Source: an uncultured Clostridia bacterium (lineage in GTDB: Bacteria > Bacillota > Clostridia > Oscillospirales > UBA644). Taken from it: DNA of 64,000 nt. The position numbers and the translations under genes are program-made. The notes below the pieces were generated by a model that worked only from the letters and a program-made list of their open reading frames with translations, was not told the DNA's origin and did not search any database. This document shows, in pieces, positions 4,902 through 22,856 of this stretch. Position 1 is the first letter of the stretch, and each line of letters begins with the position of its first letter. The DNA lies in NCBI GenBank assembly GCA_947305805.1, contig CAMZEM010000002.1, forward strand, positions 220 through 64,219, in the 5' to 3' direction.

Positions 4902-4931
4902 ACGGAAAAAAATACAACGGGAGGTTTTAAA

Positions 4932-5573
4932 ATGGCGGAATTATTCTCAATAACGATTGCCAGACAGTGCGGAAGCCACGGCAGATCGGTTGCAAAAAGA
5001 ATTGCCGAAAAACTCGGTATTGATTATTACGACAGGGAGCTTATTTCCCTTGCGGCAAAGAAGAGCGGAATGAATCAGAAAATTTTCGAAGATTTTGACG
5101 AAAAGCCCACTAATTCGCTTCTTTACTCGCTTGCCATGGGCGCATACGCCATGGACGGTCAGTACGTTTACTGGGGCGACTCCGCCGTACCTCTTTCCGA
5201 TAAGGTATACAATATTCAATCCGATCTCATCCGCAGCATAGCGGCGGAAAAATCATGCGTTTTTCTCGGCAGATGCGCGGACTATGCGCTGAGGGACAGT
5301 TACAGAAGCATTCACGTAATGGTGACAGACCTTTTGCAGAACCGCATAGATAACTATATGATAGAAAACGACATTTCAGACCGCAAAAAGGCGGAGGACG
5401 AAGTTGTTAAAATAGACAAAAAGCGCGCAAACTACTACAGCTTCCATACAAACAAATCATGGGACAGCGCAGACAGCTTCGATCTTTGCGTCCGCACAAG
5501 CATACTCGGCGTAAACGGCACCGCGGATATGATAATCGCTTTTGCCGAAAAAAAGCTCGGAAAGCTTATCTGA
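4932..5573 (+). CDS. cytidylate kinase-like family protein (P-loop NTPase)
   Basis: 213 aa. ITIARQCGSHGRSVAKRIAEKLGIDYYDRELI is the degenerate P-loop N-terminus typical of the cytidylate-kinase-like family. Confidence 0.65.
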   Translation: MAELFSITIARQCGSHGRSVAKRIAEKLGIDYYDRELISLAAKKSGMNQKIFEDFDEKPTNSLLYSLAMGAYAMDGQYVYWGDSAVPLSDKVYNIQSDLIRSIAAEKSCVFLGRCADYALRDSYRSIHVMVTDLLQNRIDNYMIENDISDRKKAEDEVVKIDKKRANYYSFHTNKSWDSADSFDLCVRTSILGVNGTADMIIAFAEKKLGKLI

Positions 5574-5574
5574 T

Positions 5575-5997
5575 ATGAAATGCGCCTATCAGAACTGCCG
5601 CGGCGAGACGGATAAATACGCCACGCTTGAAAGCGACGACGGAAACGGAAACATACGCAAAGAGACGGTCCCTGTCTGCGACGGATGTGTTGCCGTGTAT
5701 CTTACCGCGCTAAGCGAAAAATACAAATCGCTCAGAAAAGTATGCGTTTCTATTCTCGGTTACGGACTTGCGGCGCTTATTCTGCCCGCGCTGATATTCG
5801 AAATAATGCGCGTTCCGGCATATATCCTATGTCCGCTGATTGCCGCGGTGTTTATCCCGCTTACAGTGGTTTTCAGACGGAAAGAGATTGAATGCGGCAA
5901 CGACCTTATAGACGGAAATCTCGAAAAATACAGACCGAAAGCTGCGCTTGCGGCCCTTGAGGAAGAAAACGGAATAACGTATTCGATTCCGAAATAA
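5575..5997 (+). CDS. hypothetical membrane protein with N-terminal Cys-pair (zinc-ribbon-like) region
   Basis: Listed ORF is 5542..5997. I prefer the ATG at 5575, two nt after the upstream TGA. CxxC...CxxC (CAYQNC..CDGC) is followed by two hydrophobic helices. No family recognised. Confidence 0.45.
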   Translation: MKCAYQNCRGETDKYATLESDDGNGNIRKETVPVCDGCVAVYLTALSEKYKSLRKVCVSILGYGLAALILPALIFEIMRVPAYILCPLIAAVFIPLTVVFRRKEIECGNDLIDGNLEKYRPKAALAALEEENGITYSIPK

Positions 5998-6003
5998 AAA
6001 ATA

Positions 6004-6043
6004 CCGGCTGAAACATCTTTGCTTCAGCCGGTTTTAATTTTTT
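6004..6043. terminator. bidirectional intrinsic terminator between convergent genes
   Basis: Stem ccggctgaa / ttcagccgg (6004-6012 / 6023-6031). A T-run follows on the + strand and an A-run precedes it, giving a T-run on the - strand. Confidence 0.7.
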
Positions 6044-6077
6044 ATACTAAAACAGCACTCCGTTATATTTTATCTGT

Positions 6078-6239
6078 TTATTCTTCTTTGCTGAAATCGT
6101 CTTTTCCCACGCCGCAGACGGGGCATGCAAAATCTTCCGGAAGATCTTCGAATTTCGTTCCCGGTTCTATGCCGTTATCGGGATCGCCGAGCGCCTCGTC
6201 GTATTCCCAGCCGCATACGCTGCAAACATATTTTGCCAT
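6078..6239 (-). CDS. rubredoxin
   Basis: Absent from the ORF track (53 aa). My translation is [53 protein letters not shown], with the two CxxCG knuckles and W/Y/F core of rubredoxin. AGGAGG lies 8 nt upstream. Confidence 0.9.
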
Positions 6240-6258
6240 TTTTATTCCTCCTTATATG

Positions 6259-8049
6259 TTACTTTATTTCTTCAAAATCCGCCGCGCCGTGTTTGCACAA
6301 AGGACATACAAAATCGTCGGGCAGTTTATCGCCTTCGTAAACGTAGCCGCATACCTTGCAAACGTAACCTTTCTTTCCTTCCGTTTGCGGTTTCGGTTTT
6401 ACGTTGTTCTGATAATACGTATACGTCATTGTTTCGCTGTCGGATATAACTCTCGCTTCCGTAACAGCGCAGATAAACATTCCGTGAGTGTCGAGATCGA
6501 CGTACTGCTCAACTTTAAGGGACATAAACGCGTTTATGTATCTTTTCAGGAAAATCAGTCCGTTATCCGAGCGCAGCGGGTCGCAGTCTGCAAATTTATC
6601 AACGTTTCTTCCGCTTGAAAAGCCGAATTTTTTGAAAATCGAAAACGGAGCATCGGTTGAAAGACAGTTAACGTTCATAATACCCGTCTGTTTGATAATA
6701 TGATGCGAGTAATTCTGCTTGTTTACCGTTACGGCTATTCTGTTGGGCGTATTCGTTACCTGCGATACGGTGTTTACGATAAGTCCGTTATCTTTCTTTC
6801 CGTCGTTTGAAGTAACAACGTAAAGTCCGTAACCTATTTTGAAAAGCGCCGTTAAATCGTTTTTATTCGCCGTTTCTTCCTGACGCGCAAGATAGTCTTT
6901 GCAAAGCTCTTTTGCAAGTTCGTCGGTCTTTTTATTAGTTTCGTCGTTTGGGGAGGAGAGGATAGTTACGGAGTTTTCGGCAAATGTGAGATTTCTGCAC
7001 GGTTCGAGCAGATTTTTCATAACTTTTAACGCCATCGGCGCCCACGAACCGTTTTCTATAAGCGCAACGGTTCTGTTTTTAAAGCCGCGCTCGCAAAGGC
7101 CGGAAATAAACTCGCGCATATAGGGGAATATTTCCGCATTGTATGTTGTTGTGGCAAGAACGAGCTTGCTGTATCTGAAAGCGTCCGCTACCGCCTTAGA
7201 CATATCGCATCTTGCCAGGTCGTAAACCGTTACGGAAGGACAGCCGTTTTCGCGGAGTTTTTCGGCAAGACGTGATACAACTTTTTTCGTATTGCCGTAA
7301 ACGGACGTGTATGCTACAACAATGCCCTCTTTTTCGGGACGGTAGCCCGACCAGGTATCGTAAAGGTTTACATATTTTTCAAGATTTTCGGAAAGAACGG
7401 GGCCGTGACGCGGACAGATCTTTTTAATAACGAGTCCTCCCGCTTTTTTGAGAAGAGACTGAACCTGCGCGCCGTATTTACCTACTATTCCTATATAATA
7501 TCTGCATGCCTCGTCGTCCCACGGCTCGTTTGCGTTTAAATCGCCGAATTTTCCGAATGCGTCGGCGGAAAAGAGAACTTTGTCCGTGCCGTCGTAAGTA
7601 AGCATTACCTCAGGCCAGTGAACCATGGGCGCGGTAACGAAGGTGAGGTTGTGCTTTCCGAGCGACAGTGTGTTCATATCGCCTACGATTATCTGTCTGT
7701 CCTCAAAACCGTTTCCGAAAAAGTTTTTCATCATTGCAAACGCCTTTGCGGTGGCAACAACGGTTGTATCGGGATACACTTTAAGAAAATTTACTATATT
7801 TGCGGAATGGTCCGGCTCCATATGCTGGATAATCAGATATTTCGGCTTTTTTCCGTCAAGAACGGACTGGATATTATCGAGCCACTCGTGGGTGAAGGCG
7901 GCGTCAACGGTATCCATTACTGCGATTTCGTCGTCTAAAATCACGTATGAGTTATACGAAATACCGTTAGGTATCAGGTAATGTCCTTCAAAAAGATCGG
8001 TTTTTCTGTCGTTTACGCCAACGTATTTTATATCGTCTGAAATAATCAA
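6259..8049 (-). CDS. flavodiiron protein (FprA-type) fused to flavin-reductase-like and rubredoxin domains
   Basis: 596 aa. N-terminal metallo-beta-lactamase-like domain has the diiron motif HMEPDH, followed by a flavodoxin-like domain (VVAYTSVYGNT). Next comes an FMN split-barrel flavin-reductase-like segment (GLYVVTSNDGKKDNGLIVNTVSQV). A C-terminal rubredoxin (CKVCGYVYEG...CPLCKHG) ends the protein. Confidence 0.85.
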   Translation of the reverse strand: MIISDDIKYVGVNDRKTDLFEGHYLIPNGISYNSYVILDDEIAVMDTVDAAFTHEWLDNIQSVLDGKKPKYLIIQHMEPDHSANIVNFLKVYPDTTVVATAKAFAMMKNFFGNGFEDRQIIVGDMNTLSLGKHNLTFVTAPMVHWPEVMLTYDGTDKVLFSADAFGKFGDLNANEPWDDEACRYYIGIVGKYGAQVQSLLKKAGGLVIKKICPRHGPVLSENLEKYVNLYDTWSGYRPEKEGIVVAYTSVYGNTKKVVSRLAEKLRENGCPSVTVYDLARCDMSKAVADAFRYSKLVLATTTYNAEIFPYMREFISGLCERGFKNRTVALIENGSWAPMALKVMKNLLEPCRNLTFAENSVTILSSPNDETNKKTDELAKELCKDYLARQEETANKNDLTALFKIGYGLYVVTSNDGKKDNGLIVNTVSQVTNTPNRIAVTVNKQNYSHHIIKQTGIMNVNCLSTDAPFSIFKKFGFSSGRNVDKFADCDPLRSDNGLIFLKRYINAFMSLKVEQYVDLDTHGMFICAVTEARVISDSETMTYTYYQNNVKPKPQTEGKKGYVCKVCGYVYEGDKLPDDFVCPLCKHGAADFEEIK

Positions 8050-8076
8050 GATTCTGTCCTCCGTTTTATATGAGTT

Positions 8077-8122
8077 ATAAAAAGCCCGAAAGCGAAAACG
8101 CGTATGCGAAGGGCTTTCGGGC
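8077..8122 (-). terminator. intrinsic terminator after the 88-aa gene
   Basis: Stem gcccgaaagc / gctttcgggc (8084-8093 / 8113-8122), followed on the - strand by TTTTTATAA. Confidence 0.65.
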
Positions 8123-8133
8123 GGCTTTTCGGT

Positions 8134-8400
8134 TTATTTTTCAAACGTCAGGCGGATTTTGGGAAGTTCGCTTGCCTTATCCTCGAAAAATTCCTTTATC
8201 TTATCCGAATTTTTGTATATAACGTAGCCGCATGCCACCGCCGCGCCTATGCATATTATGTTGCGTATCATTTTTCTGCGGCGTTTTTTCAGTTCTTTCT
8301 GAACTTTCTCTTCAACGGCGGTTTTTACCGCCTCTTTTATCTTTGCTTTCGTTCCGTCTCCGAAATTTACAAGCAATTCGTCTATTTTGCTGTTTACCAT
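8134..8400 (-). CDS. hypothetical small membrane protein
   Basis: 88 aa. Charged helix, one TM segment (IICIGAAVACGYVIY) and a charged tail. Good SD (AAAGGAG) and its own consensus promoter. Confidence 0.5.
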   Translation of the reverse strand: MVNSKIDELLVNFGDGTKAKIKEAVKTAVEEKVQKELKKRRRKMIRNIICIGAAVACGYVIYKNSDKIKEFFEDKASELPKIRLTFEK

Positions 8401-13030: not shown

Positions 13031-14179
13031 TCATATTTCCTTGATACGGTCAACAAGAGAGACAAACCGTGGATCGTCGTGTAATTTATTATAATAAACG
13101 TCATTTTTGTCCATCAGTACAACGTCAAGAAATTGAGGTAATTGTTTTACAGCGTGAACACCCTCGGATTTATCTTTTAATTTGCACGTAAGCGGCGATG
13201 TATAACAGTATTCACCGGACGAGCGCAATTTATCAAGATATCTGTCAAAAGCTTCAGCGTGCTCAAATGCGCGTTCGAGCGAGTCAAAAGCTTCGTCAAA
13301 GTTCGATTGGCTTAACTGTATTTCCGCGGCGGCAAGATATATACCGTGGACAACAACGTGATAGAATCCGTAATCATCTCCGAATATAAACCCGTACATA
13401 TCGAGAAGCTTTTCCAAAGCCTTCAATTTAACTGTGTTATCTTTTGCCTGCTGGTATATTTGATGATTCAAATGATCAAGACCGTCGACCATCAGGCGCT
13501 GACTATACATATCAGCTTCATCATCGTAACTGTATCTGAATGCTGTGGATAAGAAATCGTTTTTTGAATCAGGATAATGTTCCGCCAACTCGACAGCGCG
13601 TTGTTTTTCACCGATAGTACCGTATAAATAAATCAATAATTGCGTGCATTCATAGCGTATACTATCATCAACAGAAGTTAAGAGAAGCTCTTCCATGATC
13701 CTGCTCGGCTCTTCCCAACCCGGTACAGACCTGATTTTGTTTAGATTGCGTCTGTATTTGCCGTCGATTGTTACGCCGATCCTGTCGCAGGAGCGCCATG
13801 TATCATTCCATTTATACCACAAAGCCTGAGCCAAACGGAAAAGCAGCCTTTCATTTGCGGGAAATTCGGCAAGTGCCTGACGCATAAGCTCTACGCGTTC
13901 CTCTGCCGGTGACCATTTTCTGTAAAGATCGTCATAACGGGCGCAGTAATCGTCTATTTTTCGCTGTTTTTCATCAAGATCGTGACCGAAAAGCTCGTCA
14001 ATTGTGACGTTGAAAAAGTTTGCGATCGGCGTGAGATATTCAAGGTCGGGATAACCGATCTCGCTCTCCCATTTGCTGACCGCCTGCGCTGTGACGCCCA
14101 ATGCGTCAGCCAGTTTTTCCTGCGTCACGCCGTCGCGCTTGCGCAGCGACTTGATTTTTGCTCCTATTTTGATATTCAT
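13031..14179 (-). CDS. XRE-family HTH transcriptional regulator with long helical-repeat (TPR-like) C-terminal domain
   Basis: 382 aa. IKSLRKRDGVTQEKLADALGVTAQAVSKWESEIGYPDLEYLTPIANFFNVTIDELFG is a classic Cro/C1 HTH. The remaining roughly 310 aa are helix-rich with Ala/Leu/Tyr periodicity. Confidence 0.8.
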   Translation of the reverse strand: MNIKIGAKIKSLRKRDGVTQEKLADALGVTAQAVSKWESEIGYPDLEYLTPIANFFNVTIDELFGHDLDEKQRKIDDYCARYDDLYRKWSPAEERVELMRQALAEFPANERLLFRLAQALWYKWNDTWRSCDRIGVTIDGKYRRNLNKIRSVPGWEEPSRIMEELLLTSVDDSIRYECTQLLIYLYGTIGEKQRAVELAEHYPDSKNDFLSTAFRYSYDDEADMYSQRLMVDGLDHLNHQIYQQAKDNTVKLKALEKLLDMYGFIFGDDYGFYHVVVHGIYLAAAEIQLSQSNFDEAFDSLERAFEHAEAFDRYLDKLRSSGEYCYTSPLTCKLKDKSEGVHAVKQLPQFLDVVLMDKNDVYYNKLHDDPRFVSLVDRIKEI

Positions 14180-14216
14180 GTTTCCTCCGAATATTTGAAT
14201 TCACCGGTGTAACTCT

Positions 14217-14244
14217 ATTATATCAGAATATAGAGCAAAGTCAA
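14217..14244 (-). promoter_or_regulatory. candidate promoter TTGACT-16-TGaTATAAT for the XRE regulator
   Basis: On the - strand TTGACT is at 14244-14239 and the extended -10 TATAAT at 14222-14217. The short inverted repeat ctctat/atagag overlaps the -10. Confidence 0.5.
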
Positions 14245-14510
14245 TTATCAATTTGTTGTTGTCAATACAACGAATCGTTGACGGCGTGTATCTTTTCACA
14301 CTTTTGATATAATCATTACCTTCAAAAAATGTACATTGACGGTCAGCGGGTACAGCTTATCGAAATTTACTTCAACGGCGTCGGCATCGTAGAAGAAATG
14401 ACGCCCGAACAGATGGAAGAAGCCTTTCAGCAACGCCACAACGCCACAAACAAAACGGCGTAACCGAAGCGGTCACGCCAAATTACCACAAATCAAATAT
14501 CAATTTAGAT

Positions 14511-14558
14511 ACAAAAGCCGCCTTGGGGCATCTTCCTTACGGAGGATGCCCCAAAGGC
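14511..14558 (-). terminator. intrinsic terminator after tRNA-Ser
   Basis: On the - strand gcctttggggcatc / gatgccccaaggcggc forms a stem with loop ctccgtaaggaa, followed by TTTTGT. Confidence 0.7.
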
Positions 14559-14571
14559 TGTCATTTTGTTA

Positions 14572-14659
14572 TGGCGCAGGAAGAGGGATTCGAACCCCCG
14601 TGGCTTTTGGCCAAACGGTTTTCAAGACCGCCTCGTTATGACCGCTTCGATATTCCTGC
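14572..14659 (-). tRNA. tRNA-Ser (anticodon UGA), class II with long variable arm, encoded CCA
   Basis: Reverse complement: GCAGGAA-TA-...GCGGT-CTTGAAA-ACCGT-TTGGCCAAAAGCCAC-GGGGG-TTCGAAT-CCCTC-TTCCTGC-G-CCA. The acceptor, anticodon and T stems all pair. It closely resembles Bacillus tRNA-Ser(UGA). Confidence 0.9.
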
Positions 14660-14690
14660 ATATTTGTACCGATCAACTTCGGTAATATAT

Positions 14691-14719
14691 ATTATACAAT
14701 AATCGTTGCGATTTGTCAA
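14691..14719 (-). promoter_or_regulatory. promoter TTGACA-17-TGtTATAAT for tRNA-Ser
   Basis: On the - strand TTGACA is at 14719-14714 and TATAAT at 14696-14691 with an upstream TG, about 30 nt before the mature tRNA 5' end. Confidence 0.65.
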
Positions 14720-14764
14720 TAATCGCAGTCAAAAGAATTATGAAATATTTTTGACTGCATAACG

Positions 14765-14800
14765 AAAAAATCTCCGGCAAACCCTTAAGATTTGCCGGAG
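14765..14800 (-). terminator. intrinsic terminator after rubrerythrin
   Basis: Stem ctccggcaaa / tttgccggag (14772-14781 / 14791-14800). U-runs are available on both strands. Confidence 0.75.
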
Positions 14801-14820
14801 TGTGTTTTTTTTGCTGTTTA

Positions 14821-15357
14821 TCAATAATTTTCCGCTTTAACTTCAAAGTAAGCCTGAGGGTGATTGCATACGGGGCAGACTTCGGGAGCGGCTTCGCCGT
14901 AGTGGATATGTCCGCAGTTTGCGCATTTCCATGCCGTCATTGTCGGCTTTTTAAACGCTCTGCCCGAATTGATGTTTTCAAGAAGCTTTAAATATCTTTC
15001 TTCGTGCTCTTTTTCTATTGCCGCTACGCCTTCAAAAAGCGCCGCAATGTCGTCAAAGCCCTCTTCTCTTGCTGTTTTTGCAAAGTCGGCATACATTTGA
15101 GTCCACTCAAAGTTTTCGCCCTGTGCCGCAGCGAGCAGGTTTTTATCCGTTTTTGCTACGCCGCCGTGAAGGAGCTTATACCAGAGTTTTGCATGTTCTT
15201 TTTCGTTGGCGGAAGTTTCCGCGAAAATGTTGCTTATCTGAACGTAGCCGTCCTTTTTTGCCTGAGAAGAATAATACTGATATTTAACGCATGCCTGAGA
15301 TTCGCCCGCAAATGCGGTTTCGAGATTTTTTTCGGTTTTACTGCCTTTAAGATCCAT
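14821..15357 (-). CDS. rbr: rubrerythrin
   Basis: 178 aa. N-terminal ferritin-like diiron domain ([15 protein letters not shown]...EKEHAKLW...EKEHEERY) plus a C-terminal rubredoxin-like CANCG...CPVC. Confidence 0.9.
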
Positions 15358-15385
15358 TTTATTGTCCTCCGTTGTTTAAATTGTT

Positions 15386-16909
15386 TTATTTTTCAGTAAT
15401 AAATCTGTGAGTGCTTACGCCGTCTATTTCCTCCGCCTTTGCATAAACAACTTCGCCTTCATAGCAAAGCTTGTCTTTAAGCTGCGAAAGGTGTTTTTTC
15501 ATATCGGGAAGGTGCGTTACGGCAATTACTCTTGCTTTGTAAAGCGCGGCAACGGCTATAAATTCGCTTAAAGCTATCGACGCCTCGTCAAACGAAGTTG
15601 ACTGATAAACCTCGTTGAAAAGCAGCATGTCGTTCGGCTTTATCATATCAAGGAAGCCCGAAACCGTTTCAACCTCTTCTTCAAAACGTCCCTGACCTAC
15701 GTCAAGAGCGGTAAAGTATGCGTATACGCCGGCAACGGGTGTGATTATCGCTTCGGTGCAGGGAACGGGCAGCGCCGCCTGTCCGAGCAGCTGAATTATG
15801 CCGACCGCTCTTAAAAAGACCGTCTTTCCGGCGTTGTTTTTACCGGTGATAACGTATGCCGCGCAGTCTTTGTCAAAAATCGCGTCGTTGGGAACAAGCA
15901 CGTCGCCGGGGCGTTCGTTTCTGTTTTTCTGATACTGTTTGAGAGAAAACCACAGATCGTATATGTTTTTGCATTCAAATCGGTTGCCTTCCGTGCAGAA
16001 TTCGGGGATGCACATGGGAAGACCGAGCCGCTCGTAGGTGCGTTCGAGTATCGCGGCAAAGTCGTAAAAATAAAATCCGTTACGTATTTTGTCAAACGGT
16101 TTTTTCATCTGATAAGTTACGGATTCCATAAAGGAAACGAGCTTAATCATACTTCTTTCGGCAAGGAACTGAAGCTGCTGATCCGAGTCTACGTCAAAAC
16201 CGATTGATATTACGGTTTTGTCTTTATCCTTCAATACCGGCGTATTCTGTCCGTAATTGTACGGATCGGAAGTGAGCGCAAACATCTCGCAGTCCAGAAT
16301 ACGGATGTATTTGTCAAGCTTAGTTAAAATAACGAATGAAGTGTTAAGATTAAGCGATTCGGCAAGCTCGGAAGCAACAGCTTTAAGCTCTGCAAATGCG
16401 GGATTTTCAACCTGCGCTGTAACAAATTCGCGCATTTTCAGCATAAGCTCCGAGCGAAGGTCTTTTTTCGCAAGCGTTTTGCCGTATTGCTCGTAAATTT
16501 CCTGTATCTTTAAAATACAGTCGGCAAGCGTCTGCACGGTGAATATGGAAGACTCTCTGTCTGAAGTGGTGGCTCTGCCGCCGGTTGTTGTGATTATCGA
16601 TGACGCGGAAGTTTTTACTATTTTCAGCGCGTCTTCAAGTTTAAGATTCAGTCTTTCGATAAGCTCAAACTCGTGAAGCAGCGATGCGTTGCGCCTGAAA
16701 TCGTCAAGTATCTCTTTTCTCCAGATAAGATTTTCCATATCCTGTTCGGGGTGGCTTAAAAGCGCAAACATCTTTTTCTGAAGAATAATATCTACCGTAA
16801 CTCCGCTTACAACCTCGTCAAGAAGCAGGCTTTTCATGGACATTTCAAGCTGTTTTGACGATTCTGTTTTCGAAGGGTTTTTGTAAAGAAGATCAAATTC
16901 GGGATACAT
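15386..16909 (-). CDS. MutS-related ATPase paralogue B (MutS domain V plus helical core only)
   Basis: Listed ORF extends to 16945. I prefer the ATG at 16909 (MYPEF...), 1 nt after the upstream stop and 8 nt after GGGAGGAAAAG. Motifs: Walker A TGKNNAGKT, QGRFEEE signature-like, Walker B LLFNE, H-loop VTHLP. 507 aa. Confidence 0.75.
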   Translation of the reverse strand: MYPEFDLLYKNPSKTESSKQLEMSMKSLLLDEVVSGVTVDIILQKKMFALLSHPEQDMENLIWRKEILDDFRRNASLLHEFELIERLNLKLEDALKIVKTSASSIITTTGGRATTSDRESSIFTVQTLADCILKIQEIYEQYGKTLAKKDLRSELMLKMREFVTAQVENPAFAELKAVASELAESLNLNTSFVILTKLDKYIRILDCEMFALTSDPYNYGQNTPVLKDKDKTVISIGFDVDSDQQLQFLAERSMIKLVSFMESVTYQMKKPFDKIRNGFYFYDFAAILERTYERLGLPMCIPEFCTEGNRFECKNIYDLWFSLKQYQKNRNERPGDVLVPNDAIFDKDCAAYVITGKNNAGKTVFLRAVGIIQLLGQAALPVPCTEAIITPVAGVYAYFTALDVGQGRFEEEVETVSGFLDMIKPNDMLLFNEVYQSTSFDEASIALSEFIAVAALYKARVIAVTHLPDMKKHLSQLKDKLCYEGEVVYAKAEEIDGVSTHRFITEK

Positions 16910-16910
16910 T

Positions 16911-18473
16911 TTACTTTTCCTCCCTCTTCTTCTGTATGCGTTCAAGCATCTGCTCTACCGTCATATCGTATTTCAGAAGAATATCTCTTGCAAACGATGA
17001 ATTCTGGGTGCTGAGCGGAACGATTTTGTAAAGCCGTTTTCCCGTTTTTTCGTCGTTCAACGCCGTTAACACGCCCGCGCAGTGCGGTCTGTCCGCCGTT
17101 TCCGCGGCGTAGTCTTTAAGACTGTGAAGATGCGTTACGAAAAGACCCGAAATATCGTGTTCGAGCACTTTGTCAACAAGCTCTGTTGAAAGCTTGTATG
17201 CGATATCCGCTTTCGTTGACGAATACGTTTCGTTGAAAAGCGCAAGACTCTGCCCGTCGGTAACATCGCGAAGAATTCTTTCAACTCTGCCCTGTTCCTC
17301 AACAAGTCTGCCCGAATTGTCGTTGTATTCCTCAACGGGGAAGTGGGTAAACATGCGTTTCATTATTTTTATCTTCGCCTTTTTTGCGGGAACGTGTCCG
17401 CACGCCTGGAAAAACAGCTGGCAAAGACCGACTGCGGAAAGATAAATCGTTTTTCCGCCCGCGTTCGGGCCGGTGATAAAGAAGAACGAGCTCTTTTCGT
17501 AAACGTAGTCGTTATATACTACCTGCTCGGGCGCAAGGCCTCTTTTAACAAGGAAAAGACTGTAAAAATCAAGGATATCCGTTGATTCTGCGGGAACTGC
17601 CTTGGCGCATGCAAAGCCTTTTTCGATTATTTCTCTGAAAATTCTGGCAAAGCCGATAACGGCATCGAGTTTCTTTATAAGGTCAAGCCATGCGGTATCG
17701 AATACGTCTTTGTATTTTTCGTGGAAAGTATCGATATTTTTGAAGATATCGTAATAAAGAGTGTAAAGCGATTTGAAAACGGGACGCGTAAACTCTCTCG
17801 GCTGATGAACCGCAGGCGCATACGCTTCGGAAACGTCAAGCCCGAGTCTGCCGGTAATTCCCGCAAGATTCATCATAAGCGATTTATCTTCGGTTTTGGG
17901 AATTATGCTGTTTTCAATGTTCTGCCCGCGTGAAAAAAATCTGTTTAAGCGTATTTCGCCTATCGTTTCAAGACTGTCGCGAAGACCCGCCATATCTTTG
18001 AGTATCGCTTCAAGCTCCTTCTTTTTGCCGTCGGAACACGCCTCGGCAAGAATTGCCTTTACGGGCTCCGAAAGTACGCTTTTATCGAGAGCTTCCGCTC
18101 CGTCCATAAATTTTTTGTATACTTCCGTGAATTTTTCTATTATGAGAAACGTTTTCATCGTTGCCATTTCAGGAACGTTTTTAAACATTTTAAGCTCGTA
18201 AAGCAGATTCAGATCCCACAGATCGGCGCGCAGATTGCAAAACAGCGAAAACAGTCCGTCGTTTTTAATCATATCGCCTATGATATCCGCGCGGTATGAT
18301 ATTATCTCTCTGTCGCTGCAAAACTGGTTAAGTATTTCCAGCGTTGCCTCTTCCTGCTCTTTTGACGCAAGAAAAGCGTTTAAAAGCTCTTCAAGCTGCA
18401 TATCAACGGCAACGCAGTAGTCAAGCGTTTTTACATCCGGCTGAGCTTTTATCGGATCGAAAAACAGTTTCAT
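16911..18473 (-). CDS. MutS-related ATPase paralogue A (MutS domain V plus helical core only)
   Basis: 520 aa. Motifs: Walker A TGPNAGGKT, SGRLVEEQ signature-like, Walker B LALFNE, H-loop VTHLHSL. The first roughly 320 aa are helical. No Smr or mismatch-binding domain is visible. Confidence 0.75.
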   Translation of the reverse strand: MKLFFDPIKAQPDVKTLDYCVAVDMQLEELLNAFLASKEQEEATLEILNQFCSDREIISYRADIIGDMIKNDGLFSLFCNLRADLWDLNLLYELKMFKNVPEMATMKTFLIIEKFTEVYKKFMDGAEALDKSVLSEPVKAILAEACSDGKKKELEAILKDMAGLRDSLETIGEIRLNRFFSRGQNIENSIIPKTEDKSLMMNLAGITGRLGLDVSEAYAPAVHQPREFTRPVFKSLYTLYYDIFKNIDTFHEKYKDVFDTAWLDLIKKLDAVIGFARIFREIIEKGFACAKAVPAESTDILDFYSLFLVKRGLAPEQVVYNDYVYEKSSFFFITGPNAGGKTIYLSAVGLCQLFFQACGHVPAKKAKIKIMKRMFTHFPVEEYNDNSGRLVEEQGRVERILRDVTDGQSLALFNETYSSTKADIAYKLSTELVDKVLEHDISGLFVTHLHSLKDYAAETADRPHCAGVLTALNDEKTGKRLYKIVPLSTQNSSFARDILLKYDMTVEQMLERIQKKREEK

Positions 18474-18476
18474 TTA

Positions 18477-19193
18477 TCAAAATCCTTTCTTCATCTCAAC
18501 ATAATGTTTCTTTCTCATGGCGCGGCGCGCGGCTTTGAATATCGCTCTTGCTTCTCTGCCCGAAACGGCGCTTTTTGCGGGTTTGGCGGGATAAAAGCTG
18601 TTTGCAACGGCTATGCCGTAATAAATCGTGTCTCCGTCAACAATATCTATATTGCTTTTTGTTCTGACAAACTTTACCGACGGATTTATAAGCACAACGG
18701 GCACGCACGATACGGGCATATCCTTTATTGCGTAGTTTACGCTCGCGGCGTATTTAACGAGCCCGACGGGGGATTTTCTTTTGCGTTTATGCACTGTAAA
18801 ATTGTGAAAAGCCATTGTCATCGTGCCGATAATACCTTCGTTTTCGGTAGGCGCAAGACCTCTGTGGCTTGATATCTCCCAGTAATCGGGTTCTGAAAAC
18901 ATTACCGTTGATTTAAGCTTGCGGTAGCTTCTGAGCTTTATTAAGTATAGCTTGTTTCCCGAAAGAAGCATATAGTCGGGTTTATGATTCCAGAAATGGG
19001 GGATTATAAATCCCGGCCAGCCGACCTTTGCGAATTTTGCACCGCAGAAAACGCACCTGAAAAACAGTATTATTCTTAATACGATATATCTTGTGAGCGG
19101 TATTATTACAAAACACAGCAAAGAGACCGTTGCGGCCGAAATGAGAATAACAAGTCCGAAAACCTGAAAAAACGACATCGCCAGGGGCAGCAT
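18477..19193 (-). CDS. membrane-anchored protein with NERD-like soluble domain (tentative)
   Basis: 238 aa. Hydrophobic N-terminus (aa 8-47), then KPDYMLLSGNKLYLIKLRSY...YWEI...VPVVLINPSV. This spacing resembles NERD / PD-(D/E)xK domains but has K-L-R where E-x-K is expected. The stop is 3 nt before the next ATG. Confidence 0.45.
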   Translation of the reverse strand: MLPLAMSFFQVFGLVILISAATVSLLCFVIIPLTRYIVLRIILFFRCVFCGAKFAKVGWPGFIIPHFWNHKPDYMLLSGNKLYLIKLRSYRKLKSTVMFSEPDYWEISSHRGLAPTENEGIIGTMTMAFHNFTVHKRKRKSPVGLVKYAASVNYAIKDMPVSCVPVVLINPSVKFVRTKSNIDIVDGDTIYYGIAVANSFYPAKPAKSAVSGREARAIFKAARRAMRKKHYVEMKKGF

Positions 19194-19228
19194 CTGTATT
19201 CAATCTCCGTTTCATATTGTCTCATTCT

Positions 19229-19257
19229 ATTATATCATATATTATCCGATAATTCAA
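19229..19257 (-). promoter_or_regulatory. promoter TTGAAT-17-TGaTATAAT for the NERD-like/MutS-like operon
   Basis: On the - strand TTGAAT is at 19257-19252 and TATAAT at 19234-19229 with an upstream TG, about 35 nt upstream of the ATG at 19193. Confidence 0.55.
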
Positions 19258-19321
19258 CTGTTATTTTATGTCATTTATCGTAAAAAGAAATAAAGAGTTT
19301 CGGGTATATCGCATTTCCGTA

Positions 19322-19350
19322 TTGATATTTGCTTTTTTTTATGCTATAAT
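19322..19350 (+). promoter_or_regulatory. promoter TTGATA-17-TGcTATAAT for the ABC exporter operon
   Basis: TTGATA 19322-19327 and TATAAT 19345-19350 preceded by TG. It lies inside the over-extended listed ORF 19268.., which supports the later start. Confidence 0.55.
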
Positions 19351-19399
19351 AAAACAATGGAAAATCATGATTTGTATTTGCGAAAAAAGGGACAGTGAC

Positions 19400-21112
19400 A
19401 TGATAAAACTGCTTCGCTATCTTAAAGGTCACCGCGCGGAAAGCATTCTCGGCCCGCTTTTCAAGTTTCTTGAAGCGTGCTTTGAGCTTGCCGTGCCGGT
19501 TATAGTGGCGAATATGATAGACGTCGGCATCAAAAACGGAGATACCGATTACGTTCTGATGTGCGGCGGAATTGTTGTTCTGATGGGGCTTCTCGGCTTT
19601 GTAAGCGCAATTACCGCGCAGTATTTTGCCGCAAAGGCGTCAATGGCGTTCGGCACGGAGCTGAGAAACGATCTTTACAGACATATCTCCTCTTTTTCTT
19701 CTTCCGAGCTTGACAGATTCGGCACGTCGTCGCTTATTACCCGTCTAGGCGCAGACGTTATTCAGACGCAGGCGGGCATAAATCTTATTTTGCGCCTTTT
19801 GCTGCGGTCTCCGTTTATAGTTATCGGTGCGGTTATAGCGTCGTTTCTTATAAACGTACGTCTTGCGCTGATATTCGTCGGAGCGGTTATATTCCTCTCG
19901 GCAACGGTCTGGATAATAATGAGAAAACTTTTGCCGCTTTATACAAAAACAAGAAAAAATCTTGACGGAATAACCGTAAAAACGCGCGAAAATCTTACCG
20001 GCGCAAGGGTTGTCCGTTCATTTGCGGCTCAGGAAAGCGAAAAAGAAGAGTTTGACGCGGCTGCGGACGGGCTTTATACGTCGCAGATAGTTTCGGGTAA
20101 AATATCAGCGCTTTTAAACCCGCTTTCGTATTCCGTTATAAATCTTGCCGCGGCATCGCTCATGTGGTACGGGGCATTTTCGGTCAATATCGGCGAAGTT
20201 ACGCAGGGGCAGATTATTGCGCTGCTTAATTATATGACTCAGATTCTTATCGCGCTGCTTGCGCTTGCCAATCTGATAGTAATGATAACAAAATCCACGT
20301 CGTCCGCCGCAAGAATAAACGAGGTGTTTGCCGTTTCTCCGTCGCTTGAAGACGGAAAGGAAGCGCTGGGCGAAGTGGAAAAAATAGAATTTAAAAACGT
20401 TTCGTATAAATACCCCGGCGCATCGGGATATTCCGTTAAAGATATATCTTTTACCGCAAAAAGAGGTATGACGGTAGGAATAGTGGGCAGTACAGGCTCG
20501 GGTAAATCAACGGTGGCGTCTTTGCTTCTGCGCGAGACGGACCCGACGGAGGGAACCGTTGAAATAAACGGACGCCGGCTTAAAGATTACACTTTTCAGT
20601 CGATTCGCTCCGCTTTCGCCGCAGTGCCTCAAAAGGCGTCTCTTTTTTCGGGAACGGTGCGCGAAAACCTTCTCTGGCGTGATAAAAACGCAACGGACGA
20701 AGAGCTTTTCGCGGCTCTTAAAACGGCAATGGCTTCGGAGTTTATAGGTAACGACCTTGACAGACAGGTTGCCAAGGCGGGAACAAATTTTTCGGGCGGA
20801 CAGAGACAGCGGCTTACAATTGCAAGAGCGCTCGTGGGCAGGTCCGACGTGCTGCTTCTTGACGACAGCGCTTCGGCTCTAGACTACGCAACCGATGCCG
20901 CGCTCAGAAAGGCGATATCGTCGCTTCCCGGCAATAAAACCGTCTTTATCGTTTCACAGCGTATTTCTGCGGTTAAAAATGCGGATATGATAATCGTGCT
21001 GGACGAGGGCAGACTTGCCGGAACGGGAACGCACGGGGAGCTTCTTGATTCCTGCCCCGTTTATGCGGAAATATGCGCATCGCAGACGTCGGAGGTGCGA
21101 AATGAAAAATAG
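19400..21112 (+). CDS. ABC transporter ATP-binding/permease protein (type I exporter half-transporter)
   Basis: Start moved to the ATG at 19400 (MIKLLRYLKG), downstream of the promoter and AAGGGA. Six-TM domain, then Walker A GSTGSGKST, signature FSGGQRQR and Walker B LLLDDS. Confidence 0.85.
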   Translation: MIKLLRYLKGHRAESILGPLFKFLEACFELAVPVIVANMIDVGIKNGDTDYVLMCGGIVVLMGLLGFVSAITAQYFAAKASMAFGTELRNDLYRHISSFSSSELDRFGTSSLITRLGADVIQTQAGINLILRLLLRSPFIVIGAVIASFLINVRLALIFVGAVIFLSATVWIIMRKLLPLYTKTRKNLDGITVKTRENLTGARVVRSFAAQESEKEEFDAAADGLYTSQIVSGKISALLNPLSYSVINLAAASLMWYGAFSVNIGEVTQGQIIALLNYMTQILIALLALANLIVMITKSTSSAARINEVFAVSPSLEDGKEALGEVEKIEFKNVSYKYPGASGYSVKDISFTAKRGMTVGIVGSTGSGKSTVASLLLRETDPTEGTVEINGRRLKDYTFQSIRSAFAAVPQKASLFSGTVRENLLWRDKNATDEELFAALKTAMASEFIGNDLDRQVAKAGTNFSGGQRQRLTIARALVGRSDVLLLDDSASALDYATDAALRKAISSLPGNKTVFIVSQRISAVKNADMIIVLDEGRLAGTGTHGELLDSCPVYAEICASQTSEVRNEK

Positions 21113-22856
21113 AAACGTTAAGTCCGACGGCGTTATAAAAAGAATAATCGCACTTGTTTCCCCTTACCGTATACAGCTCGTTTTCTCTCTTGTTTTTGCC
21201 TCGGCATACGTTGCGCTTTCGCTTTTTGCTCCGATTGTATCGGGAAAAGCCGTTGACGCGATGGTAACGAAAAACACGGTGGATTTTGATGCGGTATTCA
21301 GATACGCGGTAATTTACTCCTGCGTGGTTGCGGGAGCGTCGCTTTGTCAGTGGCTTATGACTCATCTGACGAATATAATAACTTACAAAACGGTTCTTAA
21401 ACTCAGAAAAGACCTTTTTGCAAAGATAACCGACCTTTCCGTGGGATATATCGATTCGCACGCTCACGGCGATATCTTATCGAGAGTGATAAATGATGTT
21501 GAGCAGCTTTCCGACGGACTTCTGATGGGCTTTTCGCAGCTTTTTACGGGGATACTGACCATAGTTGCAACGATAGGGTTTATGATTTCAATTAATATTC
21601 CCATTGCGCTCGTTGTTGTTGTATTTACTCCTCTTTCGCTTTTTGTTGCATCGTTTATCGCAAAAAACACGTATTCGATGTTTAAAAAGCAGTCCGAAAT
21701 ACGCGGCGATATGACATCCCTTATAGAGGAATCGGTAGGCGGTGCAAAAACAGTAAACGTTTTCGGCAAAGCGGACGACACGGCGGAAAAGATTGCGAGA
21801 ACGGGTGAAGAGCTCAGAAAATGCGGCGTTAAGGCGCTGTTTTTCTCATCGATAACAAACCCTGCAACACGGTTTGTAAACAATGCCGTGTATGCCGCAG
21901 TGGCTATCCTCGGCGCATTTTCCGCAATAAAAGGCGGAGGAATTACCGTAGGACAGCTTTCGTCGTTTTTAATGTATGCAAACCAGTATACAAAGCCGTT
22001 TAACGAAATTTCCGGAGTAATTGCGGAATTCGTGGGCGCGAAAGCATCTGCGGAGCGTATTTTCAACTTGCTTGACGAAAAGAGCGTTGAGTCGTCGCTT
22101 TCGGGAGAGATATTACCCGAAAATGTCCGGCATATCGATTTTGCGTCAGTATCTTTTTCGTATTCGCCCGAAAAACCGCTTATAGAGGATTTCTGCCTGT
22201 CCGTTCCGTACGGAAAGATGATAGCGATTGTCGGCCCCACGGGATGCGGAAAAACAACGCTTATAAATCTGCTGCTTCGTTTTTACGACGTTAATTCCGG
22301 CGAAATACGCCTTGGCGGCGTTCCTGTAAAAGAGCTTGAACTTAACGCTCTTCGCAGAAACTTCGGTATGGTATTGCAGGATACGTGGCTGAAAAACGGA
22401 ACGGTTGCGGAAAACATAGCGTACGGCAGAAAAAACGCAACGCGCGAGGAAATAGTTGCCGCGGCGGTACGCGCTCACGCCGACAGCTTTATTTCAAGCC
22501 TTGAAAACGGTTACGATACCGTAATAAAAGAGGACGGGGACAACCTTTCGCAGGGGCAGAAACAGATGCTTTGCATAAGCCGCGTTATGCTTTCGCTGCC
22601 GCCGATGCTTATTCTTGACGAGGCAACGTCTTCGATAGACACGCTTACGGAGCTCAGAATAAGAAACGCGTTTGACGAGATGACTGAGGGACGCACGAGC
22701 TTTGTTGTCGCTCACCGCCTTTCCACAATAACGAAAGCGGATCTCGTTCTTGTTATGAAAAGCGGAAAAATAGTGGAAAAAGGCACGCACACCGAGCTGC
22801 TTAAAGCAGGCGGATTTTACAAAACGCTTTACGAAAGCCAGTTTGAAACGGAATAA
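21102..22856 (+). CDS. ABC transporter ATP-binding/permease protein (heterodimer partner)
   Basis: Start at the ATG at 21102 (MKNRNVKSD), overlapping the upstream stop by 11 nt. Walker A GPTGCGKTT, signature LSQGQKQM and Walker B LILDEATS. Confidence 0.85.
   Translation: MKNRNVKSDGVIKRIIALVSPYRIQLVFSLVFASAYVALSLFAPIVSGKAVDAMVTKNTVDFDAVFRYAVIYSCVVAGASLCQWLMTHLTNIITYKTVLKLRKDLFAKITDLSVGYIDSHAHGDILSRVINDVEQLSDGLLMGFSQLFTGILTIVATIGFMISINIPIALVVVVFTPLSLFVASFIAKNTYSMFKKQSEIRGDMTSLIEESVGGAKTVNVFGKADDTAEKIARTGEELRKCGVKALFFSSITNPATRFVNNAVYAAVAILGAFSAIKGGGITVGQLSSFLMYANQYTKPFNEISGVIAEFVGAKASAERIFNLLDEKSVESSLSGEILPENVRHIDFASVSFSYSPEKPLIEDFCLSVPYGKMIAIVGPTGCGKTTLINLLLRFYDVNSGEIRLGGVPVKELELNALRRNFGMVLQDTWLKNGTVAENIAYGRKNATREEIVAAAVRAHADSFISSLENGYDTVIKEDGDNLSQGQKQMLCISRVMLSLPPMLILDEATSSIDTLTELRIRNAFDEMTEGRTSFVVAHRLSTITKADLVLVMKSGKIVEKGTHTELLKAGGFYKTLYESQFETE

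Follow-up and report, generated by a model that had tools for sequence, protein, structure and literature searches.

The closest described relatives of the genes discussed here are MutS4A and MutS4B, which were defined in 2007 by Lin, Nei and Ma as MutSac-only proteins (PMC2190696). In that paper the two genes lie next to each other and the stop codon of A overlaps B's start codon; the original members came from a few distantly related bacteria and from Thermoplasmata. A second paper, published in 2017, reports MutS4 from 15 mycobacterial species, names Mycobacterium colombiense and Mycobacterium sp. 141 as carriers and finds that the M. yongonense MutS4 operon, when expressed in M. smegmatis, increases the recombination of a homeologous rpoB fragment (PMC5742357). 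Horizontal transfer is proposed for MutS4 in both papers (PMC2190696, PMC5742357). In addition, 'DNA repair (mutS)' has been listed among the genes controlled by the crcB motif, later the fluoride riboswitch (Weinberg et al. 2010, PMC2864571). Here we analyse a three-gene operon in a stretch of 64,000 nucleotides (the window) from an uncultured Clostridia bacterium of the lineage UBA644 (contig CAMZEM010000002.1). By full-length profile matches, phylogeny and gene order, the second and third genes of this operon are a MutS4A/MutS4B pair in which B is a divergent member, and the first gene encodes a membrane-anchored protein. The original prediction for this locus had presented the pair as undescribed. 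This cannot be upheld, as the subfamily was named in 2007 and has been the subject of one functional study (PMC2190696, PMC5742357), and mutS-like genes under crcB-motif riboswitches were already known (PMC2864571). The trio is not a new kind of system. The MutS4 pair itself is known, and novelty is apparently confined to its membrane partner and to the arrangement of the three genes as a unit.

All three open reading frames (ORFs) are on the minus strand and were called exactly where they had been predicted: gene 1 from 19193 to 18477 (238 aa), gene 2 from 18473 to 16911 (520 aa; MutS4A type, hereafter A) and gene 3 from 16909 to 15386 (507 aa counted from the ATG; divergent MutS4B type, hereafter B). 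A TTG at 16945 was considered as the start of gene 3 and rejected as an over-call. The Pfam domain MutS_V (PF00488) is present at residues 332–484 of the gene 2 protein (E = 3.6e-15) and at residues 353–479 of the gene 3 protein (E = 3.4e-15), and the Pfam models MutS_I, II, III, IV and Smr have no match in either of them. A and B are 31% identical over 179 aa (E = 2e-16). Thus they are MutS-core ATPase paralogues devoid of mismatch-binding and Smr domains, as had been proposed, and the motifs read earlier from their sequences are all present: Walker A GPNAGGKT in A and GKNNAGKT in B, the signature-like SGRLVEE and QGRFEEE, and the H-loops THLH and THLP, respectively. More specifically, the ATPase domain of A occupies nt 17022–17480, with Walker A at G335–T342 and Walker B at N414–E415 (nt 17229–17234). 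In B the domain occupies nt 15473–15853 and Walker B is formed by N432–E433.

When the family alignment was used as a query against GTDB, with each species represented by one genome, at least 261 related MutS4-type loci were confirmed. The loci sampled in what follows are the best 80 by similarity together with those collected earlier; they are not a random sample, most of the sequences come from metagenome-assembled genomes (MAGs), and genes in these loci were called by a simple script that takes the longest ORF. This set contains 61 tandem pairs of proteins of about 480–570 aa, in A-then-B order, from Bacillota, Actinomycetota, Chloroflexota, Pseudomonadota, Spirochaetia, Bacteroidota and one thaumarchaeon. 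Both M. colombiense and Mycobacterium sp. 141 were retrieved as carriers. The two genes of the window were scored against profiles built only from the first genes or only from the second genes of distant pairs. Over its full length, A reaches 185 bits on the first-gene profile versus 164 on the second-gene profile, and B reaches 175 bits on the second-gene profile versus 121 on the first-gene profile. In a neighbour-joining tree of 138 sequences (479 columns, 100 bootstraps, Kimura distances derived from p-distances) the short MutS proteins form one clade with 100% bootstrap, outside of which both MutS1 and MutS2 fall. All 58 first genes, together with A of the window and the Mycobacterium MutS4A, group in a clade at 79%, and B of the window belongs to a 14-member Clostridia clade of second genes at 100%. 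In pairwise comparison with M. colombiense, A is 24% identical to the first gene over 292 aa (E = 5e-20) and B is 25% identical to the second gene over 436 aa (E = 3e-26), so that B matches the mycobacterial second gene better, and over more of its length, than it matches A of the window (31% over 179 aa, E = 2e-16).

What characterises MutS4 is found in the window, namely a MutS_V-only architecture with the core, adjacent and co-oriented paralogues, and the phylogenetic grouping. The stop/start codon overlap that has been regarded as a 'signature' is absent from the window, where the junction reads TAA-A-ATG with a 1-nt spacer. Note that this overlap varies across the family, ATGA being present in 33 of the 61 tandem pairs as called and the others ranging from −68 to +34 nt. 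The overlap describes the original small sample, and the subfamily is defined phylogenetically.

Other arrangements occur in the family as well. Unpaired short MutS genes of 544–619 aa group with the first-gene clade (L007:214-2994, L015, L017, L020–L022, L033 and L038), and their products may be homodimeric relatives; the one in L007 follows a gene for an HTH_5/HTH_20 protein after a 4-nt gap. Two pairs stand in tandem in L047:1294-8080, and a third short MutS gene is found near the pair in L010:697-8143 and L019:4818-9691.

NCBIfam has no model dedicated to the MutS4-type family, and A and B match its models only below threshold and only within the ATPase domain. The scores are 40–42 bits for MutS1 (TIGR01070, cut-off 641.7), 45–60 bits for MutS2 (TIGR01069, cut-off 400) and, for KamC (NF052383, cut-off 300), 45.5 bits with A and 47.4 bits with B. 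Membership of MutS1 was rejected on the missing MutS_I domain (PF01624) and that of MutS2 on the missing Smr domain (PF01713), the respective TIGR models scoring far under their cut-offs. Membership of KamC, the ATPase of lysine 5,6-aminomutase reactivation, was rejected on scores under the 300-bit cut-off, which is reached by none of the 79 family members (best E = 2.2e-30).

The N-terminal parts of the proteins had been described as lever/clamp-like, and this description holds for the lever only. Residues 40–486 of the family profile align to residues 338–816 of MSH2, that is, to domains III–V (E = 2e-19). In the gene 2 protein MutS domain III (lever/core) comes first, the clamp region after it is reduced, and domain V carries a helix-turn-helix at its C-terminus. 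The AlphaFold2 (AF2) model of the gene 2 protein, built from a 26-sequence alignment, has a mean per-residue confidence (pLDDT) of 81 and a predicted template modelling score (pTM) of 0.77. The model is all-helical up to about residue 285, continues with an ATPase of the ATP-binding cassette (ABC) type and ends with a helix pair. Its best Foldseek matches in the PDB are MSH2/MSH3, bacterial MutS and MutS2, with E values of about 1e-16 and more than 500 aligned columns; they include 7qv3, in which the MutS2 of B. subtilis sits on a collided disome. Residues 170–230, which take the place of the beta-rich clamp, are short and modelled with low confidence. They include a loop, NRFFSRGQNIENS (residues 176–190), within the stretch 174–194 where pLDDT falls below 50. 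The loop is conserved, it is specific to the A proteins of the close-relative trio clade, and one may speculate that it is a candidate contact site.

The Walker B motif of the family ends in Asn-Glu and not in Asp-Glu (hhhh-Asn-Glu); this is the case in all 79 aligned members, in A-type and B-type proteins alike. The corresponding Asp of E. coli MutS is a ligand of Mg2+, and mutants in which Mg2+ is coordinated less strongly are slower to bind ATP, slow to switch and deficient in repair (PMC2857095). Taken together with these mutants, the family-wide Asn suggests that MutS4 is probably a slow or differently gated switch. In the non-Clostridia clade the first gene also lacks the Thr-His of the H-loop and has F-I-D-E-L instead.

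It was proposed for this locus that A and B form an obligate heterodimer, and the results speak for it. The two genes are translationally coupled, the A/B duplication is ancient and its order is conserved, and the two proteins diverge together: across 58 loci the A–B distances correlate with a Mantel r of 0.97, the maximum in 1000 permutations being 0.25. An alphaproteobacterial MAG (L040:2535-5714) has a natural A–B fusion, a single ORF of 1059 aa with MutS4A-type residues 23–471 and MutS4B-type residues 534–1034, directly behind a fluoride riboswitch. Long fusions called in L035, L043, L059 and L073 are ORF over-calls in high-GC DNA, and L040 is the only true one. All solved MutS proteins are obligate dimers as well, and A and B are probably obligate partners.

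The product of gene 1 has an N-terminal hydrophobic helix, predicted to be transmembrane, at about residues 8–31 (nt 19101–19172), and a membrane anchor had indeed been proposed for it. The anchor is followed by a basic juxtamembrane helix with invariant P32, R35, R40 and R46, then by an alpha/beta domain and a basic C-terminal helix. Since the segment after the anchor is invariantly basic, the positive-inside rule predicts that the globular part of the protein is cytoplasmic. Its AF2 model is of modest confidence (pLDDT 68.5). Alignments reveal a core motif, D73-x12-K86-L-(K/R)88, which in the window is PDYMLLSGNKLYLIKLR (18930–18977, minus strand); D73 and K86 are invariant across both sub-families of the protein. 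We take the D73-x12-K86 register to resemble the D...ExK core of NERD and PD-(D/E)xK proteins, with Lys at the place of the catalytic Glu. If the fold is related, the domain would still not be a nuclease, because an invariant Lys replaces the catalytic residue.

The original prediction had called this protein NERD-like. The hidden Markov model (HMM) match to be expected for a family member is missing, as NERD (PF08378) is not matched by any of 14 gene-1 members, even at E <= 10, or by any of 65 diverse ones at E <= 0.1, and these 65 contain no Pfam domain at all. What is left is the register of the D...K motif, without the catalytic acid, and a sub-threshold fold match. Gene 1 of the window has no match in Pfam, NCBIfam or PADLOC and, by profile search, no sequence match in the PDB. 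Foldseek finds no fold match in the PDB (best E = 0.048, TM score < 0.2). In BFVD, a set of viral models, two matches have the highest TM scores, though still below threshold: one is to an unnamed protein, the other to a phage 'Nuclease-related domain protein' (E = 0.19, TM score 0.31, probability 0.51). In all, HMM scans, the PDB profile search and Foldseek against PDB and BFVD yielded this one sub-threshold NERD match, and membership of the NERD family was not upheld; a degenerate nuclease fold of the NERD type is possible but unproven. The gene-1 family is sizeable: an exhaustive profile search gave 389 clusters at 50% identity with E <= 1e-3, of which 196 have E <= 1e-10, and almost all of its members are stand-alone proteins of 180–200 aa.

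The order gene 1, A, B is found in many Clostridia loci outside this genome, which speaks for the original prediction. In the window and in the closer relatives L001, L003, L005 and L131–133, which are 37–98% identical in A, the gene immediately before the MutS pair is gene 1 or a homologue of it. A 203-aa sub-family of gene 1 occupies the same position in L023–25, L090 and L091. The same holds for 20 of the 27 loci retrieved with P0112, a 188-aa member of the family, usually with 4-nt overlaps. Altogether gene 1 accompanies the MutS4 pair in about 30 diverged Clostridia loci. When pairwise distances are compared across 17 trio loci, gene 1, A and B correlate with one another at r = 0.95–0.99, gene 1 being the fastest-evolving of the three. 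The trio is a conserved chromosomal module in a group of gut and rumen Clostridia, and the co-divergence is consistent with vertical inheritance. In L090:7001-8356 two copies of the gene-1 homologue precede one pair. Gene 1 is absent from the pairs fetched from other phyla, and a conserved third partner was sought there and rejected, the upstream genes being heterogeneous and unrelated.

We give somewhat better than even credence to the reading that the trio encodes a nuclease-free, heterodimeric, ATP-switched clamp which is tethered to the membrane by gene 1 and acts on structured DNA. A and B would dimerise through their ATPase domains and form two composite ATP sites, like every structurally known MutS. 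The dimer would clamp structured nucleic acid and be switched slowly by ATP, and by analogy with MutS-gamma (MSH4–MSH5), archaeal MutS5 and the MutS2 core its likeliest substrate would be branched or heteroduplex DNA. It would signal or stabilise and not cut. Gene 1 would hold the heterodimer to the inside of the membrane or regulate it there, and its cytoplasmic domain may be a catalytically dead fold of the NERD/PD-(D/E)xK kind. The trio would be expressed from its own sigma-A-type promoter.

Several points weigh against the tethered clamp. Heterodimer formation, DNA binding and the interaction with gene 1 are all things that we infer. DNA encirclement is not assured, because in the model of A a low-confidence loop stands in place of the canonical beta-rich clamp. 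The L040 fusion is seen in a single MAG and may result from an artefactual frameshift, and B of the window is linked to the other 44 second genes of the tree with a bootstrap of only 26%. The functional study of MutS4 is a single paper that reports a modest effect in a heterologous host (PMC5742357). There are also MutS-core ATPases that do not act on DNA: MutS2 works on collided ribosomes (7qv3; PMC10897456), and KamC is annotated in NCBIfam as an aminomutase reactivase. Finally, gene-1 homologues that abut an ECF-like (extracytoplasmic function) sigma gene, sometimes without a MutS pair, hint at a regulatory role of gene 1 and not a tethering one.

A more far-reaching version of the tethered clamp, which we consider unlikely, is a membrane-tethered branch of MutS in which gene 1 is a NERD-derived dead-nuclease adaptor that holds MutS4A/B at the cytoplasmic face and lets it survey DNA handled at the membrane. 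Such DNA could be transforming or conjugative DNA, the chromosome translocated during sporulation, or membrane-attached intermediates of replication and recombination. If this is true, MutS4 as a whole would gain a defined substrate, with the fluoride-induced pairs in other phyla carrying out the same basic reaction on a stress-induced lesion.

In a different reading, to which we assign a rather low probability, the heterodimer would be an ATP-driven machine that remodels not DNA but, for instance, ribosomes or a damaged enzyme, as MutS2 does with collided ribosomes and KamC with lysine 5,6-aminomutase, and gene 1 would localise this activity at the membrane. The MutS2–disome structure 7qv3 among the best structural matches and the reduced canonical clamp domain would fit such a role, and so would the KamC model, a 508-aa MutS-like ATPase of the same size that scores level with the MutS1 and MutS2 models. 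Pairs of other phyla are moreover found in fluoride operons beside enolase, an enzyme poisoned by fluoride. Against it, the KamC scores of 45–47 bits stay far from the cut-off for A, B and every other family member, the KOW and Smr domains which recruit MutS2 to ribosomes are absent, and no candidate client gene is conserved beside the trio. The only experiment on MutS4 reports a DNA-recombination phenotype (PMC5742357).

The fluoride operons deserve a closer look. The commonest Pfam families among 148 neighbours of the pairs are enolase, DUF190, CrcB, CBS and HAD hydrolases, the classic set of fluoride-response genes. Of the 25 loci from other phyla, 14 have the fluoride riboswitch (Rfam RF01734) immediately before the first MutS gene and in the same orientation (L034, L040, L041, L045, L047, L051, L053, L054, L055, L058, L059, L063, L066 and L072), and in one further locus a single gene stands between the two. 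Genes for CrcB, DUF190, enolase and a Na+/H+ exchanger are found near these riboswitch-led pairs. In Ca. Formimonas warabiya (L054), for example, the riboswitch at 4100–4157 is followed by A (4296–5831), B (5804–7360), CrcB (7621–8067) and DUF190 (8015–8389). By position, the riboswitch-led pairs of Pseudomonadota, Chloroflexota, Actinomycetota and Ca. Formimonas are orthologous to A and B, and their Walker B is Asn-Glu as well. These loci agree with the listing of mutS by Weinberg et al. (PMC2864571), and Baker et al. in 2012 reportedly also listed mutS among the fluoride-riboswitch genes. A search of the searchable literature library found no paper that ties the 'mutS' genes of the fluoride regulon to the MutS4 nomenclature. 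Because the riboswitches switch on a pair without gene 1 in other phyla, the MutS4 family as a whole looks like a stress-response activity.

From this it could be argued that the trio, too, mitigates poisoning by fluoride or metal fluorides and is merely expressed constitutively. A and B are orthologous, by position and profile, to the riboswitch-led pairs in 14 of 25 loci, and exchange of the Walker B Asp for Asn alters the coordination of Mg2+ (PMC2857095), a chemistry that fluoride may be expected to attack. This explanation is nevertheless improbable for the Clostridia trio. Rfam finds RF01734 neither in the window nor in the 14 near-clade Clostridia loci nor in 14 loci of Lachnospiraceae type, the window contains no gene for crcB, DUF190 or enolase, and gene 1 never occurs in riboswitch-controlled loci.

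Another explanation concerns gene 1 only. It might be a regulatory membrane protein, anti-sigma-like or signalling, that merely shares an operon with the MutS4 pair. It is retained as a rival because an ECF-like sigma gene abuts gene 1 in one Clostridia lineage (P0112): this gene, of 553 aa, has Sigma70_r2/r4 and a C-terminal extension of about 380 aa, and it ends exactly where the gene-1 homologue starts (L139:3339-5000, L148:3339-5000, L153:533-2194, L158:3338-4999 and others). In four to five loci, L148, L153, L156 and L158 among them, the couple of sigma and gene 1 occurs without a downstream MutS pair. No sigma gene adjoins gene 1 in the window or in its closer relatives, however, and the 4-nt overlap of gene 1 with A in many loci, together with its co-divergence with A and B (r = 0.95), ties it to the pair. 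An N-terminal anchor with a cytoplasmic body is also unlike classical anti-sigma factors. A purely regulatory gene 1 is thus hardly probable in our opinion.

A last explanation is anti-phage or anti-plasmid defence, in which a membrane sensor or effector and an ABC-type ATPase pair would detect foreign DNA and abort infection or block its entry. MutS4 is patchily distributed and horizontal transfer has been proposed for it in both papers (PMC2190696, PMC5742357). Two or three copies occur in some genomes (L010, L019 and L047), and the combination of ABC-type ATPase, small membrane protein and possible nuclease-like fold is reminiscent of the components of several defence systems. A few neighbours in other phyla match PADLOC models ('WIN-domain-free singletons' such as WYL, RT, Cas12f/TnpB-like and mad2/3/8). 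The original prediction had placed the operon at a tRNA-Ser hotspot with a decayed duplicate of the tRNA, as a typical setting of accessory or defence cargo, and this part of it does not hold up. In relatives the trio is flanked by varied housekeeping genes (aminotransferase, citrate synthase, glutamate dehydrogenase, Mur ligase, TrmO and GlnA), and in the flanks of 10 or more trio loci there is no integrase, transposase or defence gene. Because of these flanks, of a GC content equal to that of the flanks, of the sigma-A promoters that relatives have of their own, and of three genes that co-diverge as if inherited together, the argument for defence cargo is unsupported. With PADLOC-DB v2 neither gene 1 nor A has a match and B has only P-loop-level matches with E >= 0.002, so the statement that no named anti-phage system is matched stands. 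PADLOC matches among the 148 neighbours of related pairs are scattered singletons without a recurring defence partner, and on these grounds a defence island was dropped as the leading idea. Gene 1 has Lys for the catalytic Glu, and no other effector domain is present. There is no evidence for a tie of the trio to phage defence, which we consider quite improbable.

The tRNA itself is a single tRNA-Ser(TGA) at 14572–14659, found by ARAGORN and Rfam in the region 13900–15400, and it is the sole Rfam match in the window. The decayed duplicate was not detected in that region by ARAGORN, Rfam or a repeat finder. The tRNA does not border the operon directly, as a rubrerythrin gene (15357 to 14821, minus strand) sits between them. 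This gene starts 28 nt after gene 3, across a gap free of terminators, and the first terminator 3' of the operon is an intrinsic-terminator-like hairpin with a T-run behind the rubrerythrin gene (14800–14772, minus strand; 13 pairs, 7 of them GC). Rubrerythrin is thus probably co-transcribed with the trio in the window, yet it is not a conserved part of the unit: the genes 3' of the trio vary among relatives and include thioredoxin (L001), TrmO and convergent genes. A redox link, with rubrerythrin here and thioredoxin in L001, was considered as a conserved feature and rejected after unrelated downstream genes had been found in three further trio contexts.

At the other end of the operon, and between its genes, the anatomy is as it had been read. 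The minus-strand sequence gives TGA-TAA-ATG, with a 3-nt spacer, at the junction of genes 1 and 2, in addition to the 1-nt spacer between genes 2 and 3. Purine-rich elements resembling Shine-Dalgarno sequences (GGAG, AAAGGA and GGGAGG) precede the ATGs of genes 1, 2 and 3 by 9–12 nt. The operon is headed by a sigma-70-type promoter, TTGAAT-17-(TG)TATAAT (19257–19229, minus strand), which has 10 of the 12 consensus positions and the TG extension, and the leader between its −10 element and the ATG of gene 1 is about 35 nt. Most relatives have an extended −10 sigma-A promoter of their own just 5' of gene 1. The −35/spacer region in the window is overlapped by a perfect 6-1-6 palindrome, ATTATCgGATAAT (19241–19253), whose half-sites look like Fur-family hexamers in inverted order. 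This palindrome is specific to the window and absent from the promoters of relatives. Sites resembling those of SOS, PerR and Fur were sought 5' of gene 1 as a shared operator, and the idea was abandoned, the window-specific palindrome being all that was found.

Other neighbours are mentioned for completeness. A flavodiiron-type protein with metallo-beta-lactamase/ODP, flavodoxin, flavin reductase and rubredoxin-like domains is encoded at 6259–8049; together with rubrerythrin (14821–15357) it makes up a local cluster of oxygen-stress genes, an adjacency that is not kept in relatives. Two ABC exporter genes (614 and about 600 aa) at 19268–22856 diverge from the operon promoter region. Transmembrane and ATPase domains were confirmed for the first one only, and the TTG start of the second ORF, which at 21015 overlaps the first gene, is probably over-called.

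Among the MutS subfamilies, MutS4 is one of the few that still lack an assigned biochemical function. It is widespread, occurs as a pair, is marked by the Asn-Glu Walker B and is tied to fluoride riboswitches in many phyla. With the Clostridia trio comes a dedicated, co-evolving membrane partner whose sizeable family has no database model. A fixed physical partner, and with it a location, provides a handle on the role of MutS4 and would help to explain why a MutS-like ATPase is induced under fluoride stress.

Based on these results the trio can be compared with known systems as follows. Gene 1 has an N-terminal membrane anchor and after it an alpha/beta domain whose D-x12-(K)-x-(K/R) falls in the register of the D...ExK core of NERD/PD-(D/E)xK proteins; it differs from these proteins in the missing HMM match (14 and 65 members), in a fold match that stays sub-threshold (E = 0.19, TM score 0.31) and in the invariant Lys at the position of the catalytic Glu. 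MutS-gamma (MSH4–MSH5) and archaeal MutS5 are nuclease-free MutS proteins without domain I for which a clamping of branched recombination intermediates has been proposed, and MutS-gamma is a heterodimer of two diverged paralogues. The pair of the window likewise has no domain I and no nuclease. It falls outside those clades, has no domain II and a reduced clamp region, and the comparison extends to the mode of action only. No MutL-type partner is encoded near the pair. The best match in both sequence and structure is the MutS2 core (T. thermophilus 7vuf/7vuk, B. subtilis 7qv3), a domain III–V core of similar size. MutS2 is, however, a homodimer with KOW and Smr domains, neither of which is present in the proteins of the window, and the aligned MutS2 chain has Asp-Glu where they have the Asn-Glu Walker B. 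MutS4A/MutS4B are, as in the window, two adjacent, co-oriented and translationally coupled short MutS paralogues consisting of the ATPase region and the core. The window differs from them in the 1-nt spacer in place of the 'signature' stop/start overlap, in a B that belongs to a divergent, Clostridia-specific clade of second genes, and in a third, membrane-anchored gene before the pair, none being mentioned in the consulted passages of the two papers on MutS4 (PMC2190696, PMC5742357). The 'mutS' of the fluoride-riboswitch regulon (PMC2864571) belongs to the same protein family as the pair of the window; what distinguishes the window and its Clostridia relatives is that gene 1 stands there instead of the riboswitch and the crcB, DUF190 and enolase neighbours.

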